Assembly (NCBI GenBank): GCA_000165425.1
Contig: CT868043.1
Span: 62,001 to 126,000, forward strand
Length of the DNA stretch: 64,000 nt
Source: Paramecium tetraurelia
Taxonomy: Eukaryota
Direction of reading: 5' to 3'
The notes under the pieces were generated by a model that was not told the DNA's origin, searched no databases, and saw nothing but the letters and a program-made list of their open reading frames with translations. The first letter of the stretch is position 1. Every line of letters starts with the position of its first letter. Below, one piece after another: positions 1 to 52,434 of this stretch. A program made the translations under genes and the position numbers.

Positions 1-491
1 AGAGGAGATGTCATTCCAGGAATATAAGTATATATATTGACAATTTATTAGATTGATGGAAACAACGTATTCTAAGTTAGAGAGACACTCAAATTCGCCA
101 AGAAGCACTGTCTCGAAAAGGGACCAATCTTCATTGAAGCCATGACTTACAGATATCATGGACATTCCATGAGTGATCCTGGTGTCACCTACAGAACAAG
201 AGAGGAAGTTCAATAATAGAGAAAGACTAGAGATTGTATCAACTATGTTAAAAACATTATTCTTGAAAACAAAGTGGCTGATGAACATTAATTGGAAGTA
301 TTTCATTACTTTATACTTTTTAGGAAATCGATAACACAGCTTAAAATGAAATTGATATTGCTGTTGAATAAGCCAAAGTTGATCCAGTTCCACCAAGCAC
401 TGAATTGGCAACCGATGTTTATGTTGACAATTAAAATCATTTCATTAGAGGAATCTTATATAAGGATAGCATTCTACCAAAGAGTTAATGA
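1..491 (+). CDS. PDHA1: Pyruvate dehydrogenase E1 alpha subunit, 3' part (truncated by window)
   Basis: [29 protein letters not shown] signature; two tiny introns; TGA 489-491. Confidence 0.95.
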
Positions 492-22488: not shown

Positions 22489-24504
22489 ATGAATTAATAA
22501 TCGTTGTTAGTGGAGAAGAATCTAATCTATCGTTTGTTTGAAAAGGACAACATTATAGGCAAGGGCAAGGATTTGATTCACGGAATAAGTTCAAGCATTT
22601 ACAAATTGAAAAAAAATAATCATGTAACTTCAGATTTTAATGGAGAATGGGGATGGCATGCTCTTCAAATATATGAAAACCTCAATCTGGAGGTGTTTGA
22701 GACCAAAGTAATTCAATTATAGAAAGCGATGACAACTCATTTGAATCCATATTCAACAAGAATAATTTTAATTGGAAAAGAACAAGTGCATTAATAGTAA
22801 TTTAATTTGCATGTTGTATATGAATTTGGATCAGTTAATGATGACTTCAAAAGCATGAGGGATTAGAAAGAAGGTCTGGATGACGAGGAAGCAACAAATT
22901 TCTTGAGTTTCTTGTGTCATAATTATATGTTGGGTTCTCAATTTACAAATGAATTTTTAGATATTAGTCCTCAAAACATATTCTTTACCGACTAATCCTA
23001 CATTGTATCTAATTTTGGAATAACCTATGCTGGAACCAAATTTCATAGATCCTATTTACCCATCACAGATCCCATTTTAAAGGAGAAAAAGCCTTCTAAA
23101 ATTAATATTTTGTATTCATATGCCTTTAGAGCAGGATTGCTTGTTTTGACTCAAATGACATAAATAGATCCTAAGGATTTATTTTTTGAAGATGGCTAAT
23201 TTAAAGAACAACTTTTAGATAATATTTTATACCTAATCTAAGATGGAGATGAGAAGGAAAAAAGAAAGGATAAGAAGTTCATCACCCAAATTCCTTAGTT
23301 CTTCGATACTCTAACTCATTCAAGAGAGCAGGATTATAATGAATAAAAGGCTAAAAATCAAGGAAAGCAATTTAAGTATGTCAAATCCTAAAGGTTTCTA
23401 CAACACAAATATCGTAAAGAGTTCTTGGACATTCTTAAGAAATTGCTTAACGTGAATAATATCTAAAGTCGATCAATTTTCTAACTTTTGATTGCTCAAC
23501 CAGAAAATATACTCTAAGTGCAAGCCCCTTATGATGAAAGATCGGAGGACAAATACAATTACTCGAATGGGACAATTGAGAATAACAAATTGAATGGATG
23601 TGGAATCATATCAATAGATAAAGGAGATGAGAAGGGCAAATAGAAAAATGTTGAACTCATCCAAATGTGCGGAAGGTTTGAGAATGGAGAGGTTAGTGAT
23701 GCTTTTAATATCATCACCATTCATAACATCAAATATGAATGCAAAATGTTCCATTTGCAATGTGACTTAGAGTTTAGGTATGTCTATAATGAACTGTTGT
23801 ATTTGAATGAGGAGATTGTATCTCCCATAAATCCGATAGGAAAACTCAAGAAGGAAACCATATACTACTTCAAGGGTTAGATTGAAGAAGGGCAATTTAA
23901 ATAAGGAATCTCATATCAATTGGACAATACGATATTTGAGGGAGAGTTTAAGAACAATCAACCGTATGAAGGGACTTTGACTTATCCCAACTAGGAGGTC
24001 TTTGAAGGGACTATGGACGGTTTCAATAAAAAAAAAGGTAGATTAGTTGTAAAGGGAAGAACATATGATGGCCAATTTATGAATGATTAATTTTTCAAAG
24101 GACATATAGAATACGAAGATGGGGGAGTATTTTATGGTAATTTTAAAAATGGATAAAAAGGTATTCTTAAATCTTGATTATTAGTCAAGGCCGGAGTTTA
24201 TCAATATCCGAACTCGTAAATTTAATATTAAGGTTTATATGCTGACGATCTCAGACATGGCAAAGGGTAATTCATTGACAGATCAAAGGAAAATTGTGTT
24301 CAAGAGGTTGTTTACAATTATGGATTGTGCGAAACTAAACTCATTGAGCATTTTGAAAAAGCCTTGAAAGAAATTTAAGAAAAATAGAAACAACAAAAGA
24401 GTCTCAAAAAACAAGGTTAACAAGAAGAAGATAATGATGAAGAAATAGAAGAAGATATCGAAGAGAATCCAGGCGATGACAATGAAGACGGAGATGAAGG
24501 CTGA
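22489..24504 (+). CDS. Pseudokinase + MORN-repeat protein, copy 1, acidic tail
   Basis: IIGKG, EFLDISPQNIF, SNFG; MORN-like FEGEFKNNQPYEGTLTY, YQGLYADDLRHGKG; DE-rich C-terminus. Confidence 0.75.
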
Positions 24505-45617: not shown

Positions 45618-48155
45618 TCATATTTTGTCTAAATATTCGTTTAGGTCTGGGAGCTAAACCTTGATTCCCTTTCTCTTTCTTATACTCAGTACCAATTCAT
45701 TAATTTTTGAACCAGGCTCTAGTGGATCACCATTGAGTATAGCCCAATGATCAAACACACACTAAGGGAAGGCTTAACCTTGAGTAAGACCTCTGAGATG
45801 GGCTGTGAATCCGAAAGACTCAGCAACAGGCAAATATGATCTAATCTAAAAATATTAAATTGATATAATTACTAATGATAGAGGTGTTCCTGGAACTTGT
45901 TCTTCTTCAATAATCACTCCTCTTCTTGTATTCAAACAGTTATACACACCACCAGTTGAATCAATAGGCACAGTAATTTCTGCTAAAAAGACGGGTTCTT
46001 AAAGTTTAGGTTATGCTGTCAATTCACAGGCATAGTACAATCTTCTGGCTGTTGGTATAATTTGTCCTCCTCCTCTATGAATGGCATCAGCATGTAAGAC
46101 ACAATCTAGGATATTTACTCTGACTCCCCTTTGGTTCTCTTCACAAAGTGGACCTTCTTTGCTAGACCATTACCAAGCACTTTCCATAGATTCTCTAATT
46201 TCATTCATATACTGAACACCTGATGTTTTTTCCATCAGAATATTTGGACCTGAATTGTCAGGACCGAAAGTCCATATCTTAAGGGCATCATCCTTATCCC
46301 ATTCATATTGTTCTGATAGTATTTTAGCTCTTCCTTTATTATCATCCTTCGCTGTGACTTCTCCTTTCTCGATGGCATTTTGAAGTCCTTCATGAAGTGG
46401 CTCTGCTTAAGCATAGAGTCTGTTGTGACTATTAGGAGATTTGGCCATACATACAATTTTGGATGTAGCTGAAACAGTCTCCTTATAAGATACGATGGGA
46501 TCTGATCTTATGATTTCAATGTTAGCGAAGTCCTTCTCTAAATCATTCAAGCATATCTCTACATGCAATTCTCCACATCCTGCTACCACATGCTATCCTG
46601 ACTCCTCAGTTGTACAAAGCACCAAAGGATCTGATTTAGCTAATCTCTTCAACCCCTCTACTAATTTTGGTAGTTCTCCTGGGTTCTTAGGCTTGACTGC
46701 CACTCTCACTACAGGTGATACTGAATATTTCATTGATCTGATCAAATGACTTTCAGGATTATCTGAGATAGTACCTGTCTTCAATATGACATCATCCACA
46801 CCAACTAGACCAACAGTATTACCACATGGGACATCAGGTATGTATTCTACTTTACTAGCCATCATCAATACTGTTCTTTGGACTACCTTCTCAAACAAGT
46901 CTTCTTTCTTTCCAGGCTTATAATTTGGTCCCATGATTCTCACCTTCTATCCTGTGCCTATGGTGCCTGAAAACACTCGACCAAAGGCAAAGAATCTACT
47001 TCTATCAGAGGTTGGTACCATCTTTGATACATACATAATCAAGGGTCCTTTGGGATTGCACTCTCTCATTGATTAAGCTATGGCATCATCCTAAGGTCCT
47101 TCATAAAGATAAGAGGTTCTGTATTTCTAAGCCTCTCTAGGTGATGGCAGATGACAAATAATCATCTCAATCAAGGTGTCTGCAGCATTAATCCACTTTG
47201 ACATAACAGCTTTCAAGAGATGCTTACCATTCAACTTCTACTCTTCCTATGTAAGTTTCAACCCTAAGACATTGAACATCTTATTAGCTACTTCCATATT
47301 ACCTTCCATGATAGCATTGGCCATCTTACATATGGGATCCATAATGAAGGCAACGAAAGCTCTCTTCAATTACTTTCCTGAAGCTCCTTCACTATCCTTC
47401 CTCCAACATTTGCTCTCATCATCAAAGTAGTTGTCACCCCACAATCTTTCTTGTAGTTTCTTTGGTTCAACCTTGAATTTGGCAGCATATATCATGGCGA
47501 ATTTCGAACATGAAAATGCCCAGCATTCCTTACCTGATCCAAAGGCTACCTACCCAAGTTCTGGTTGTACTTATAGTTCTCCCATGTCCTCTTGTTGATA
47601 GGTGGAAATGATCACGTTCACATTATCAATGACTCTGACAAATTTCTGGTACATAGTCTCACCATCAAGTTTTTGTTCCAGTATTGCTCTATCAATCTTA
47701 TTTATCATCACCACTGGCTTGATCTTCTCTTGCATGGCTTGTCTGAGTACTGTCTCTGTCTGCACACAGACTCCTTCCACACAGTCCACAACTACCAAGG
47801 CTCCGTCAGTCACTCTGAGAGCTGCTGTGACTTCAGAACTAAAGTCTACATGTCCTGGAGAGTCTATCAAATTGATCAAGAACTACTCCTTGACGTTGTT
47901 GTAGTTAATATCAAATTCATAGTACAATGATACTCCTGTAGACTTGATTGTTATCCCTCTTAATTGTTCATCCTCTCTTGTGTCAGTCATTCTCTTGTCT
48001 CCACTCTCTTTGGCTGACAAGATCCCAGCCTTACAGAGCAAAGAATCGGTTAGAGTTGACTTTCCGTGGTCGACATGAGCGATGACTGACATGTTTCTGA
48101 TGTTCTATTGCTTATTCATGATCTCTCTTATTTGATCTACAGTGAAGTTAACCAT
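45618..48155 (-). CDS. EEF2: Eukaryotic translation elongation factor 2 (836 aa)
   Basis: [64 protein letters not shown]; one 27-nt intron at 45846-45872. Confidence 0.98.
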
Positions 48156-48728
48156 TGTTTTTTATTTTTTATTTTAATTATTGAAAATTAAATGATCCTA
48201 AACTGCGCTATTTAAGCCAAAATTTTCTGGTTAATTCCGGTAAAAAGTAAATTCTTTACTAAATTTTTAAATGATGTTATTATAAATTAATAATAATTAC
48301 AATTTTAATAGTCAATATTTTAAATATATATATAGTTAATTAAAATCATTCTAAATGCCATAGTGTTTAACTACTCCTTCCTAAATTATGTTAACTATAA
48401 ATTTTAAACTAAATCGGAAATTCGGAAATTCTTCTCATTATGGAAATTAATCATACTTTTATCTCTTAAATCTAATTAAGAGTTTGCTATATGAAGTAGA
48501 AATAGCAACAACTTCTACCTATATTTCATTAATTATAATAGTCTCTTTTATTATAGCTCTATGTTTCTTGAAGTTCTTGATGTTCTTTGAAAATAATGGT
48601 CTGAACCCCTTTAGATTGTTCTTAACCCTTTTTAATTTATTAATTGGAAACTCTTACTTATATAATTTGTTTAGTTTATGTAAAATACCTTTTCTATTCT
48701 TTAATTTACATTAAATTAAAAATAAAAA

Positions 48729-50200
48729 ATGAAGAAAGCAATCAAACAGAAAGTAAAGATGTTAGGGGCTTTGGAATTGGATCGACAGATTAAACGCAAA
48801 TTGGAATCCACTAATTACTCAATATTATAGAATTTTGATGTATATCAACTCCCATATTGCAGTACTTTCGATCTCTTTTAGGAAGACCTCATAAACACTA
48901 TGCTGATGTTGAGTAATTGAAGAAATTCTTATAGCACATACCATATCTCAAGGAAATCACTGAAGGCATGTCGATGAGATTGGTTGAGAAGATCATACAT
49001 CAATTATCATTAAAATTCCTGCCTGCTAATAGTTAATGTGATTCTCAATTTCAGATAATGTTGAGTGGAGAAATCCAAATAGGCTAAAGAACATTTGTTT
49101 AGACTGACACTCTGAATGAAGTGGGGACAGTTATAAGAGATGCTTGGGTTTTGGTATTAAGTAACGAGGGATACAATGACCTCATTAGAGAATATCATGA
49201 GAATCTGTTGGCTTAGAAGTTACATCTGATTCAACAATATTCAGTATTCAGCAAAATCAGCATTCAGAGGTTGAAAAATCAATTGGATTAATTTAAATAA
49301 GAATAGGCTACCAACAACACAATACTATATTAAGAAAAACAACCAGCCGATTCATTCTATTTAATAGTTTAGGGGGAAATCAAACTGATACAAGAAGATA
49401 TTGAATTATAATTGTTGGGACCTAAATGTGTTTTTGGAGAAATGGAATTGGTCGAGGGAAATGAACTCAGATTACACAAAGCCATTGTTACTCAACATAC
49501 ATCTTACTATAGAATAGGATATCATCAATTAAAAATACTCTTGAATTCAAGTTGCTTATATGAAACATTTTGTTAGAATTATCACATTAAAGCCTAATTT
49601 TGGAAGGCGAGAAAGTAACAATGCAAAAAAGAAGTAATTATACCCATTGACTACTCTGAATTCAAACATGAGATCCCTAAGACATATCATAACTACCTCT
49701 CTGCTTCCAAATTGCTAAAGTATGCAAAATAAAGCACTATTGTTACATAAGATGATCAATAAGAAACAAAAGAGGATAAAGTACTTGAATATTACAAATA
49801 ATTCAATCATCAAATCAAATAAAATTTTAAAAACAACCATTTACTTAGAAAGGTATTAATTTAGGCTAAGTAAACTAATCATGACTTACCCATTATGAAG
49901 GGATTGCAATTAGAAAGATACTTACCCAAGAACCATTTCACTCATAAGAAGTCACTTAAAATTATTAATCAGTTCAATGAAACAAAACAATAAGGATTTG
50001 TATTAGATATAGAATCATATCCAACAACAACTACGTTTGTGAAGGGATCCAGATTATTTAGTGCTGCAACCAGATAACAATCTGCTGCTACCTGTAGGTT
50101 ATAATCAGCAGCACCAAAGTTATTTACAAGTCCTTCGTAATTATAATCTTACAGGCCGATGACAGCAGTTTAAAGATCAAAAACAAATGAAGCTAAATGA
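48729..50200 (+). CDS. Cyclic-nucleotide-binding domain protein
   Basis: YQEKQPADSFYLIVQGEIKL..VFGEMELVEGNELRLHKA, preceded by a degenerate first cNMP domain. Confidence 0.75.
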
Positions 50201-50240
50201 ATAAATCTAAGATTTTATATACTGAAAACACATCATATAA

Positions 50241-50947
50241 TCAATTTTTATGTTTTTTTGTATTAACTTTTGTATTACTAACTTTTTTATTAACAATTTT
50301 AGATTGCTTTTTGATTTTTTTAGATTTGGTTTAATTGGTCTTGGTCTATTTTTGTGGATATTCCTTACTTGGTCTTAATTTGAAATCTAAATTATTGATG
50401 AAATTTACTATTCAATTTGGGAGTGACTTCAAACCCAAAGGATTTACACAATCTCATGGGATTCAATTTCAAGACATCATAATTCTGTTGATCTAATTTA
50501 TGTTGATAAGTCTAGTATAAATTTGATATTGTACATAGACAAAATCTTTGTATGCCTTATCAGCTAGACAATTAAGATTATAGTTGCTAGAAACCAATTT
50601 CATAACTTCCTGAGTTGCGAATTATTCCTATTTATTCTTCTCCAACTTGCTTTCAGTACAATTAGGTATCTTCTCTTCTGGCAGAACAAAGACTAAGCCA
50701 CTCTTCACTTCTGTCAAAGGGGGATCATAGTAAATTTACAATGATTGATTAGCTGGTTGTTAGTACGTCCTGAAATTAGTTTTTATTCCCATTAAGATAA
50801 AGAGCTCTTACAAAAACTATATGTTGTGAATTGACTTACATTGATTTAATTTTCAGAGAAGACTACGACAGTATTGGATTTAATTCTCTTCACGATACTT
50901 ATCAATAGTTAAAGTCTTTCATCTTGCTCCACTAAAATGTAATTCAT
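50241..50947 (-). CDS. Minimal Has1/DDX18-derived protein (~212 aa): RecA2 remnant + DUF4217-like extension + Lys-rich tail
   Basis: MNYILVEQDERLQLLISIVKR..VVVFS..YYDPP..LVFVLPEE..KLVSSNYNL..AYKDFVYTY..RLCKSFGFEVTPKLN; introns 50817-50839, 50512-50534, 50387-50408. Confidence 0.75.
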
Positions 50948-50966
50948 AAATTAAATTATAATTAAA

Positions 50967-51447
50967 ATGTCTCTTATATTGAGTCAAATCAATAAGGATA
51001 ATGTGAAAGTGGGCAAGGGTTGTTGTATAGCTTTGGGAGTGTAAATACTCTCAGAAGTAGGGGAAATCGTCATTGGAGATTACACGATTATAGAGGAAGG
51101 ATGCATCATTAGAAATAATCATTTCAAGAAGATGGTCATAGGTTCTTATAATGTTTTTGAAATTGGATGCAAGGTTGAAAATTCTAATATTGGTGATTGT
51201 AATGTATTTGAAATGAGATGTACTACTATATCTAATCAAAGGTATGATTGAAAGTGGCTGTACAATCGAAAACAATTGTAGATTCGGTATTAATTCAAGA
51301 GTTCCACCCAAACAGAATTTTCCTAACTTCTCTAGGGTGTATTACCCTTTTAATGTCTTAAAAGTGCCACCCTACGATTCATCATAGCATAAAGAAGAAA
51401 TCACAGAATTGTGTGCTGCATTATTTTAGATTGGATCAAAAAAATGA
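50967..51447 (+). CDS. DCTN6: Dynactin subunit 6 (p27), left-handed beta-helix
   Basis: GEIVIGDYTIIEEGCIIRN..MVIGSYNVFEIGCKVENSNIGDCNVFE. Confidence 0.85.
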
Positions 51448-52434
51448 TATTTACATATGTTTACTTAATCAAATTTAAATAAACATATTGTATTTCAAAT
51501 CAACTCAGTAAAACTAAACTTAGATGATCATTTATAACTCTTTTTTTAATTTTGACATTCTCATAAGTGTGCTTGAAAGCTAGAATGAATGCTAATTAAT
51601 TAGAATTATTCGATAATCTTATTAGTATTATTGTTTATTAAATATTATATGCTAAGCACTAAAAATGATTTTATTAGCAATATTAAAATCTTAATCTTTT
51701 TTTATCTTAACTTAATAATTTAACCTCCTATATTATTATTCTAAGTAATCAAGTATTTTTTAGGTTTGAAACTATAATTAATACATTTTATACTTCAAAA
51801 TAAATATATAATTGAAATAATTCTTTTTGGAGTATTTAAAATATATATACAATTTTCATTAGAATTAATAAAAATACTAGCCAAATGTAATTAAAGCTTA
51901 ACCTTTAGAATTATCATCCTATTCGTATCCATAATACTTACACAATTATTTATTTAGGAACACCTTCAATGTTTTGAAACATATGAAACTCTTGAATCTT
52001 GTTTGAAACTATTTTTAATTGTTAAATTAATCAGTTCTTATATTGTTTTTTATCTGGGTTTTATAATTTAACTATACCCTCATGATATTTCAATTGCCTC
52101 TTTTTTTGATGTGAAACATTCGTATAAGTTATAAACACAAATATATTTTCTAGATTTAATTGATATAGCATATATCGTAAATTATCTTTCTTCCATTTTA
52201 AAATTCAACTGATGAAGTCTAATTTATTAAGTAGTACTATTTAGAATATTTCATGTCACCGATATTTAATTGTGATAAATACTAGAAAGAGATCCGTCGT
52301 CAGACTCAAAAATAATTAAGGGTAGGTGTGAAAATATATATTTAAATTTTGTTAGACTTAATCCATATATATCAAAATATCAACATTCTTCTCTGTGTAT
52401 GATTTTCATAATTATATCATCAATATTAGTTATA

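Follow-up and report, generated by a model that had tools for sequence, protein, structure and literature searches.

The window analysed here is a stretch of 64,000 nucleotides (nt) of Paramecium tetraurelia (contig CT868043.1 of GenBank assembly GCA_000165425.1, positions 62,001 to 126,000 of the forward strand). On its minus strand, at 50947..50241, it carries a four-exon, three-intron gene, read with genetic code 6. This mini gene, as we call it, is a real, expressed and selected protein-coding gene. Judging from profile searches, its ancestor is Has1/DDX18, a DEAD-box helicase of ribosome biogenesis, and motif scans and alignments indicate that its product is devoid of everything needed for ATP binding and hydrolysis or for canonical RNA clamping. 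By analogy with yeast Has1, we consider the chances about evenly balanced that this mini protein is an ATP-independent docking module, or passive assembly factor, for nucleolar pre-ribosomes at the Has1 site.

A previous description of this DNA, made from its letters alone (the sequence-only reading), had announced a compact gene of ~212 amino acids with its own ATG and three canonical introns. This structure was confirmed by a brute-force splice search over all GT..AG triples in 50241-50947 of the minus strand with code 6: exactly one three-intron model translates, letter for letter, to GSPATT00035389001 (XP_001433657, UniProt A0C643; P0009 in our analysis). This P. tetraurelia macronuclear record of 212 amino acids is named in databases either "unnamed protein product" or, automatically, "SPB4-like C-terminal extension domain-containing protein". 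The peptide strings quoted earlier (YILVEQDERLQLL, KLVSSNYNL, AYKDF and KSFGFEVTPKLN) were all found, as was the jump from YYDPP to GLVFVLPEE without motif VI, with 7 residues between the two strings. All three introns are of the form GTA...TAG and none has a length that is a multiple of three; tiny introns of such a pattern are normal for Paramecium genes, according to an extract of PMC11334263. Intron 2 is required by the model, as its retention would introduce an early TGA. The product can be divided into a trimmed RecA2 domain (residues 1 to ~96), a helical C-terminal extension (CTE) of the CTE_SPB4 type (97-164) and a disordered, lysine-rich tail (165-212). This tail has 17 lysines and arginines and 1 aspartate or glutamate in 48 residues, with an isoelectric point of 10.9. 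The C-terminal extension and the basic tail, said in the sequence-only reading to be retained, are thus both present.

We then investigated the ancestry of the gene. A profile built from 10 mini proteins was searched against all PDB chains and matched eight distinct sequences with an expect value (E) ≤1. All five sequences at E≤4e-5 are Has1/DDX18, from C. thermophilum (2.9e-13), yeast (HAS1, 8.4e-10), S. pombe (has1, 1.1e-8) and human (DDX18, 1.2e-5 and 4e-5), and the other three are lipocalins (E ~0.01). Two stretches match: residues 3-46 of the mini protein correspond to yeast Has1 268-313, at the start of RecA2, and residues 81-181 to yeast Has1 405-503, at the end of RecA2 and in the CTE. 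Similarity to Pfam CTE_SPB4 (PF13959, formerly DUF4217) was detected in 10 of the 10 alignment members at E≤1. GSPATT00035389001 scores 34 bits (gathering score 27; E 2.9e-8) over residues 114-162, i.e. 50585-50416 of the window across intron 2, and the P. bursaria ortholog (P0014) scores 20.9 bits, under the 27-bit cut-off. Translations of single exons alone had given a weak CTE_SPB4 match (E 0.001), which the whole-protein scan supersedes. In addition, a search of 1.84 billion representative sequences returned 50 matches at E≤1e-3, and the named full-length ones that were looked up are DDX18/HAS1 according to their sources. In an alignment of 32 sequences, the mini proteins are 22-30% identical to Has1 and Has1-like rows, and the residues best conserved with Has1 (NY.L...A..AY, the segment from F/YDV through KSFGF, and P.K/R) belong to the CTE. 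A quick maximum-likelihood tree, computed on a cut-down alignment, gathers the mini proteins in one clade (Shimodaira-Hasegawa-like approximate likelihood ratio test, SH-aLRT, 100) with a long stem of 1.31 changes per column. This clade branches within a Has1 assemblage whose interior the tree does not resolve, and it is separated from the DDX10-like group (SH-aLRT 96). The Has1/DDX18 derivation put forward in the sequence-only reading is therefore supported by the PDB profile search, by the library search and by the fold matches described below.

The loss of helicase parts was assessed on 9 full-length mini proteins and 10 canonical Has1/DDX18 rows, using regular expressions for motifs I, II, III, V and VI. 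None of these motifs was found in any of the 9 mini proteins. Of the canonical rows, 8 have all five; motif I alone is missing from the remaining two (one of which also lacks its N-terminus), and motifs V and VI occur in 10 out of 10. Moreover, neither Pfam DEAD nor Pfam Helicase_C matched any of the 10 members of the mini alignment. The mini proteins start two residues ahead of the conserved Tyr that opens RecA2, MNY being aligned with QGY of the Has1 RecA1-RecA2 linker; the product begins at this linker and, as had been noticed, RecA1 is absent. Compared with Has1 in the 32-sequence alignment, four blocks are lost. The first is 2 residues long and follows the VVVF strand; the second, of ~30 residues, takes out a strand, the QxxR helix and another strand; the third removes ~17 residues holding motif VI; and the fourth consists of ~9 residues behind LPEE. 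Only the total loss is firm, since a second alignment shifts the borders of the deletions. By structural alignment, 166 residues correspond to yeast Has1 266-489, so that ~58 RecA2 residues are missing. Concerning the motif V (ARGLD) segment, described earlier as lacking, the motif itself is indeed absent from 9 of the 9 proteins; this region is either deleted or replaced by TNFRTYQQP, depending on the alignment. The claim that just the catalytic motifs had been removed does not hold, because structural segments of RecA2 (strand, QxxR helix, strand, and the ~9 residues after LPEE) are also gone. Active DEAD-box RNA helicases are defined by motifs Q, I (GSGKT), II (DEAD) and III (SAT) of RecA1 and by motifs V (T/S-D-x-x-A-R-G-x-D) and VI (HRxGR) of RecA2. 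Since motifs I, II, III, V and VI were looked for and found missing, the mini protein is not an active DEAD-box helicase.

Same-size orthologs with the same deletions were found in five further named Paramecium species. P. octaurelia has one intact mini protein (207 amino acids), P. primaurelia and P. pentaurelia each have two intact copies (203 amino acids each), P. sonneborni also has two (205 and 203 amino acids), and P. bursaria has an ortholog of 220 amino acids that is 44-49% identical to the aurelia copies. The eight intact copies of the P. aurelia complex are 84-99% identical, and seven of them do not differ at any of residues 1-49. With P. bursaria, 6 named species provide 9 full-length copies, which agree in start, deletions and length. 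Two intact copies are kept in several species, and the sequence identities fit two lines issued from a duplication older than the species splits, which we infer to be the recent whole-genome duplication. P. bursaria branches early in the genus Paramecium. As its protein shows the same start, the same gaps and the same tail as the aurelia copies, this architecture predates the split of P. bursaria from the aurelia complex. The half-size form was found only in Paramecium, with the addition of a few fragments. Decayed copies were also detected: a scrambled one of 175 amino acids in P. sonneborni (P0015; 54-58% identical), one in P. octaurelia apparently split into models of 80 and 112 amino acids on one contig (P0016 and P0008), and perhaps P. 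tetraurelia GSPATT00036568001 (P0013), the putative ohnolog, a 142-amino-acid model without exon 1 and tail. These extra degenerate copies are consistent with a continuing loss of one duplicate in some species.

To these copies a metagenome scan added a relative: 71 stretches matched the search pattern and one locus (L001) was confirmed. L001 contains the 3' part of a mini-gene ortholog, lying tail-to-tail with the ortholog of a gene for a protein with a cyclic nucleotide monophosphate (cNMP)-binding domain that also neighbours the mini gene in the window; synteny is therefore kept. This cNMP-binding ortholog occupies positions 339-1550 of L001 and is 71% identical to the window gene (280 out of 393 residues), and the stops of the pair are 5 nt apart. 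Selection was estimated between the window gene and L001 by the Nei-Gojobori count with code 6, as nonsynonymous (pN) and synonymous (pS) differences per site. In the CTE part (67 codons), pN is 0.104 and pS 0.734 (pN/pS 0.14; 54 of 67 residues identical; Fisher p 1.3e-14). The tail (35 codons) is less conserved, with pN 0.384 and pS 0.874 (pN/pS 0.44; 14 of 35 residues identical; Fisher p 6.7e-5). For the 393 codons of the neighbouring cNMP-binding gene, pN is 0.18 and pS 0.878 (pN/pS 0.21; Fisher p 1.6e-94). Synonymous sites are thus saturated (pS 0.73-0.88), and constraint is stronger in the CTE than in a bona fide neighbour gene; a relic is effectively excluded. The opinion of the sequence-only reading that the gene has been selected rather than left to random decay is well supported by the orthologs with the same deletions, by the pN/pS in the CTE and by the spliced, polyadenylated RNA presented below. 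In L001 (nt 102-123), intron 2 occupies the same codon position, with a sequence that is unrelated but for the terminal GTA and TAG. L001 has no intron 3, and its frame and protein run straight through (124-333). This tiny intron was either gained by one of these related species or lost by the other.

Transcription was followed in raw reads from three oligo-dT, paired, stranded RNA sequencing runs of one study (X20, X21 and X22, all with the same species label), mapped over 50100-51500. RNA covers 50288-50945 solely in the orientation of a minus-strand gene, and the plus-strand neighbour shows the opposite orientation. The peak depth of the mini gene, located in exon 2, is 20, 51 and 78 in X20, X21 and X22, respectively, vs. 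~10-24 for the divergent neighbour, and the depth over exon 1 (bins 50852-50945) is 3-38. Depth dips at all three introns (bin 50805-50851 for intron 1, bins 50476-50569 for intron 2). At the borders of intron 1, loose read ends with the sequence of the other exon were counted at 50816 (5 and 6 reads in X21 and X22) and at 50840 (8 and 15 reads). The same was observed for intron 3, with 4, 6 and 13 reads at 50386 in X20 to X22 and, in X21 and X22, 6 and 20 reads at 50409. As these loose ends carry the sequence of the other exon, the splicing of introns 1 and 3 is seen directly. The gene described from the letters alone is therefore expressed, as polyadenylated and spliced RNA. Expression, orthologs with matching deletions and similarity to DUF4217, whose absence had been named as grounds to reject the sequence-only reading, are all present. 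Across runs, the depth of the mini gene varies about fourfold and that of its neighbour is steady, which could mean regulated expression.

We also compared the predicted structure of the mini protein with solved helicases. AlphaFold2 (AF2), run on the 32-sequence alignment, gave a mean predicted local distance difference test (pLDDT) of 76.3 and a predicted TM-score (pTM) of 0.72. Residues 1-174 are confident, and residues 175-212, with pLDDT below 50, are predicted to be disordered. In the model, a core of five strands and two helices precedes the CTE helices, which pack on it. The best 18 Foldseek matches (E 5e-11 to 6e-6) are Has1/DDX18 chains or chains sharing their numbering. With VIA-align, the predicted RecA2 and CTE fold superposes on solved Has1/DDX18 chains with Z 16.9-20.7 and a root-mean-square deviation of 1.8-2.2 Å over 153-166 residues, model residues 1-168 corresponding to yeast 266-489. 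Other chains score lower: another helicase chain of the same particles, probably Spb4 (Z 15.6), Dbp10-state chains (Z ~11-12), Mss116 (11.8) and eIF4A (7.8, residues 1-93 only). As an independent check, the single-sequence model of the ESM Atlas (pTM 0.69) matches Helicase_C and CTE_SPB4 clusters with a TM-score of 0.67-0.77, normalised by query length, over residues 1-186. In addition, only 194 or 167 Has1 residues are modelled in two cryo-electron microscopy entries; they span 267..481, which is the half kept by the mini gene.

The proposed role builds on published work on yeast Has1. Extracts of PMC3763536 and PMC6846684 report that Has1 enters pre-60S particles with no ATP being bound or hydrolysed, and its pre-60S role is reported to be ATP-independent in extracts of PMC3763536 and PMC9196750; the ATP-independent structural roles invoked in the sequence-only reading are thus in print in these three sources. 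Yeast Has1 is further described as sitting on top of the "foot" formed by internal transcribed spacer 2 (ITS2) of the pre-60S particle, near Rpl8, Rpl36, Nsa3, Nop15, the C-terminus of Nop16 and the tail of Erb1; there it is open and inactive, and its ATP pocket is empty. By analogy, the mini protein would dock without ATP on nucleolar pre-ribosomes at the place of the RecA2-CTE half of Has1. The CTE and the RecA2 remnant would provide the contact surface for proteins and ribosomal RNA (rRNA), and the basic tail would act as an unspecific rRNA or nucleolar anchor. The mini protein would then be a passive assembly factor or placeholder, which supplies or modulates the "physical presence" role of Has1 on pre-60S particles. 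A stronger version, in which the two jobs of Has1 are split over two genes, with docking by the motor-less protein of 212 amino acids and ATP-dependent remodelling by a full-length helicase, seems to us rather improbable.

Several observations weigh against this docking role or weaken the data behind it. In yeast, according to an extract of PMC9196750, rRNA helix H16 is clamped between both RecA domains; since this clamp uses both domains and the mini protein has no RecA1, identical docking is impossible. Contact surfaces of Has1 may also be lost, because of the ~58 missing RecA2 residues. The tree gives no resolved sister group: 12 of its 24 inner branches are open and one outgroup row, Dbp7, fell inside. 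A canonical Has1 of Paramecium was not retrieved, none of the 484 candidates scored in a search for longer relatives reaching E≤1e-3, which is weak evidence. Querying with the Has1-like protein of Blepharisma (P0031) gave 454 matches at E≤1e-10, dominated by bacterial DEAD-box proteins, with no ciliate canonical Has1 among the named ones of the 120 matches listed. The selection count at the DNA level covers residues 98-199, compared with one relative only. With regard to RNA, no junction reads are listed for intron 2 in the three runs, no reads of the minus-strand gene cover 50946-50992, leaving the ATG uncovered, and depth is zero in all three runs over 50241-50287 (the last 47 nt of the coding sequence) and beyond. 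Many fragments begin at 50329, beside an A-rich run, and we suspect that the missing 3' coverage results from internal oligo-dT priming and end effects; a poly(A) site inside the annotated coding sequence may be an alternative cause. The confident AF2 model was obtained from an alignment containing Has1 proteins and so leans to the Has1 fold; AF2 on the 10 mini proteins alone reached a pLDDT of 38.2 and that model was not used. Finally, the identifier GSPATT00035389001 is not mentioned in the full-text literature searched. Literature on Paramecium and DDX18 gave no description of the gene either, and none of the papers listed for DUF4217 deals with a stand-alone form of the domain.

Two explanations that would deny the gene a function, or its independence, are largely refuted. 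A transcribed, decaying relic of a duplicated Has1 would be conceivable in Paramecium, where many duplicates issued from whole-genome duplications are present and gene loss is continuing (extract of PMC10195154), where frames stay open easily because TGA is the sole stop, and where clearly degenerate copies of the mini gene itself exist (P0015, P0016 with P0008, and perhaps P0013). We nevertheless consider it very improbable: the 9 full-length copies, which come from 6 named species (P. bursaria among them), have start, deletions and length in common, the CTE is under tighter constraint than a bona fide neighbour at saturated synonymous sites, the frame is kept in L001 despite the missing intron 3, and the three introns are not multiples of three, with two of them shown to be spliced. 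Even harder to accept is that the gene was mis-annotated and belongs to a larger one, or that it specifies one part of a split, still active helicase with its RecA1 encoded elsewhere, although the protein begins exactly at the RecA1-RecA2 linker (MNY vs. QGY). RNA on the strand of the gene ends before 50946, and the next gene lies 19 nt away on the opposite strand. Using tblastn with two full-length Has1 queries and code 6, no RecA1-like sequence was found anywhere in the window, the CTE region of the mini gene being the sole Has1-like match. Because the flanking genes are on the opposite strand and no RecA1-like sequence is present in the window, the mini gene is not the tail of a larger local gene. 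Furthermore, a split enzyme would need motifs V and VI to be active, and 9 of the 9 proteins lack them. The proteins predicted in the other named species also share this N-terminus.

The remaining alternatives accept a selected protein and assign it another task. It might be an antagonist or decoy that competes with full-length Has1 or sequesters its partners, and so tunes ribosome production as a natural dominant-negative fragment. The putative docking half is kept and the motifs for activity are all absent, as expected for such a fragment. Overexpressed ATPase-dead yeast Has1 K92A is dominant negative (extract of PMC3763536, citing earlier work) and Has1 interacts with itself in two-hybrid assays (extract of PMC6846684), and the variable depth of the mini gene next to a steady neighbour would fit regulated expression. 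However, the two intact copies kept in several species fit dosage-sensitive constructive factors at least as well, and the canonical Paramecium Has1 with which the protein would compete was not retrieved in the searches made; we regard this antagonist as a minor candidate. An equally doubtful possibility is recruitment outside ribosome biogenesis, where the CTE and RecA2 remnant would be a generic fold that binds protein or RNA, anchored on nucleic acids by the tail. The long stem branch of the mini proteins and their 22-30% identity to Has1 rows suggest a burst of change after truncation, and the function of the CTE_SPB4/DUF4217 domain is itself described as unknown in an extract of PMC9960301. 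Against such a change of task, the residues best conserved with Has1 sit in the CTE, and all detectable relatives are nucleolar ribosome-biogenesis helicases.

Compared with known systems, the mini protein shares CTE_SPB4, a basic C-terminal tail and the RecA2-CTE fold with Has1/DDX18, the nucleolar DEAD-box helicase of 90S and pre-60S assembly. It differs from it by its size (212 amino acids vs. 433-784 in the full-length aligned rows) and by the loss of RecA1, the five motifs and ~58 RecA2 residues. A precedent for non-enzymatic helicase folds in pre-ribosomes is Utp25/Def, a DEAD-box-derived pseudohelicase of the small-subunit processome whose helicase motifs are dispensable (extract of PMC9539457). 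Utp25 keeps both RecA-like domains and forms a separate, ancient family, whereas the Paramecium protein is a Has1-derived half-helicase. A pseudohelicase assembly factor in the manner of Utp25 would be, by analogy, the nearest known concept for the mini protein. Other Has1-like proteins have lost several catalytic motifs: P0031 (Blepharisma stoltei), P0050 (Chytridium lagenaria), P0062 (Tuber aestivum), P0070 and P0040 combine the Pfam domains DEAD, Helicase_C and CTE_SPB4, and examples of their losses are DDAN or DSAD in place of the DEAD motif, no HRxGR and, in P0050, a deleted motif VI segment. Unlike the mini proteins, they retain both RecA domains and full length, and in sequence they look like recurrent "dead Has1" paralogs. 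Since the tree places none of them as sister of the mini proteins, these look like separate losses, and the loss of Has1 catalytic motifs is not unique to Paramecium, as such degenerate full-length proteins exist elsewhere.

If the two jobs of Has1 are indeed split over two genes, the mini gene would be a natural separation-of-function allele kept since before the radiation of the genus, and the RecA2-CTE half of Has1 would be an autonomous pre-ribosome-binding module. Work in yeast suggests that Has1 fulfils part of its task on pre-60S particles by mere presence, without ATP, a contribution that genetics can hardly tell apart from its enzymatic role in 90S particles; a selected protein made of RecA2 and CTE only would be direct evolutionary evidence for a function of that half. 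The mini gene would also offer a tool to ask what CTE_SPB4/DUF4217 binds, in an organism with RNA interference by feeding and tagging with green fluorescent protein. Moreover, it would extend the short list of non-enzymatic ribosome-assembly proteins derived from helicases by a "half-helicase" form. The mini gene is also a clean illustration of a Paramecium duplicate that lost domains and was then retained over the long term.

Coordinates of the mini gene and its flanking genes in the window
Feature	Position	Strand	Description
Exon 1	50947-50840	-	Residues 1-36; ATG 50947-50945; start of the RecA2 remnant: strand, helix, motif-IV-like strand TVVVF
Intron 1	50839-50817	-	23 nt, GTAAGT...TATAG
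Exon 2	50816-50535	-	Residues 37-130; remaining RecA2 core (FLQELFILMG, LQIYYDPP, GLVFVLPEE) and first CTE helices
Intron 2	50534-50512	-	23 nt, GTACAA...ACTAG
Exon 3	50511-50409	-	Residues 131-164 and base 1 of codon 165; conserved CTE core YDVLKLNPMRLCKSFGFEVTPKLN
Intron 3	50408-50387	-	22 nt, GTAAAT...TTTAG; phase 1 in codon 165
Exon 4	50386-50241	-	Residues 165-212 and TGA stop 50243-50241; lysine-rich tail
Spacer	50948-50966	.	19 nt between the ATGs of the mini gene and the divergent neighbour; stranded RNA switches strand here
Divergent neighbour	50967-51447	+	ATG at 50967 onward; 22-nt intron 51220-51241, spliced in RNA reads
cNMP-binding-domain gene	48839-50200	+	Convergent; ends 40 nt from the mini gene stop; Pfam E 7.7e-13

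Owing to the short spacer, the 5' untranslated regions of both divergent genes must be tiny or overlap. The weak similarity of the divergent neighbour to left-handed beta-helix and hexapeptide families, at 23 bits for LbH_GLGC and 20 bits for Hexapep, does not reach the Pfam cut-offs. The window as a whole has ~30% G+C, with TAA and TAG inside open frames and introns of 22-23 nt. A long open frame on the minus strand, at 45618-48311, departs from this composition (G+C 0.40 vs. ~0.30 elsewhere) and has a strong negative GC skew; by eye, its translation resembles translation elongation factor 2, with the GTP-binding motif AHVDHGKST. Finally, 23857-24297 on the plus strand matches the MORN-repeat N-terminus of one of the Has1 queries (P0036; tblastn E 1.2e-5), which suggests a MORN-repeat gene.

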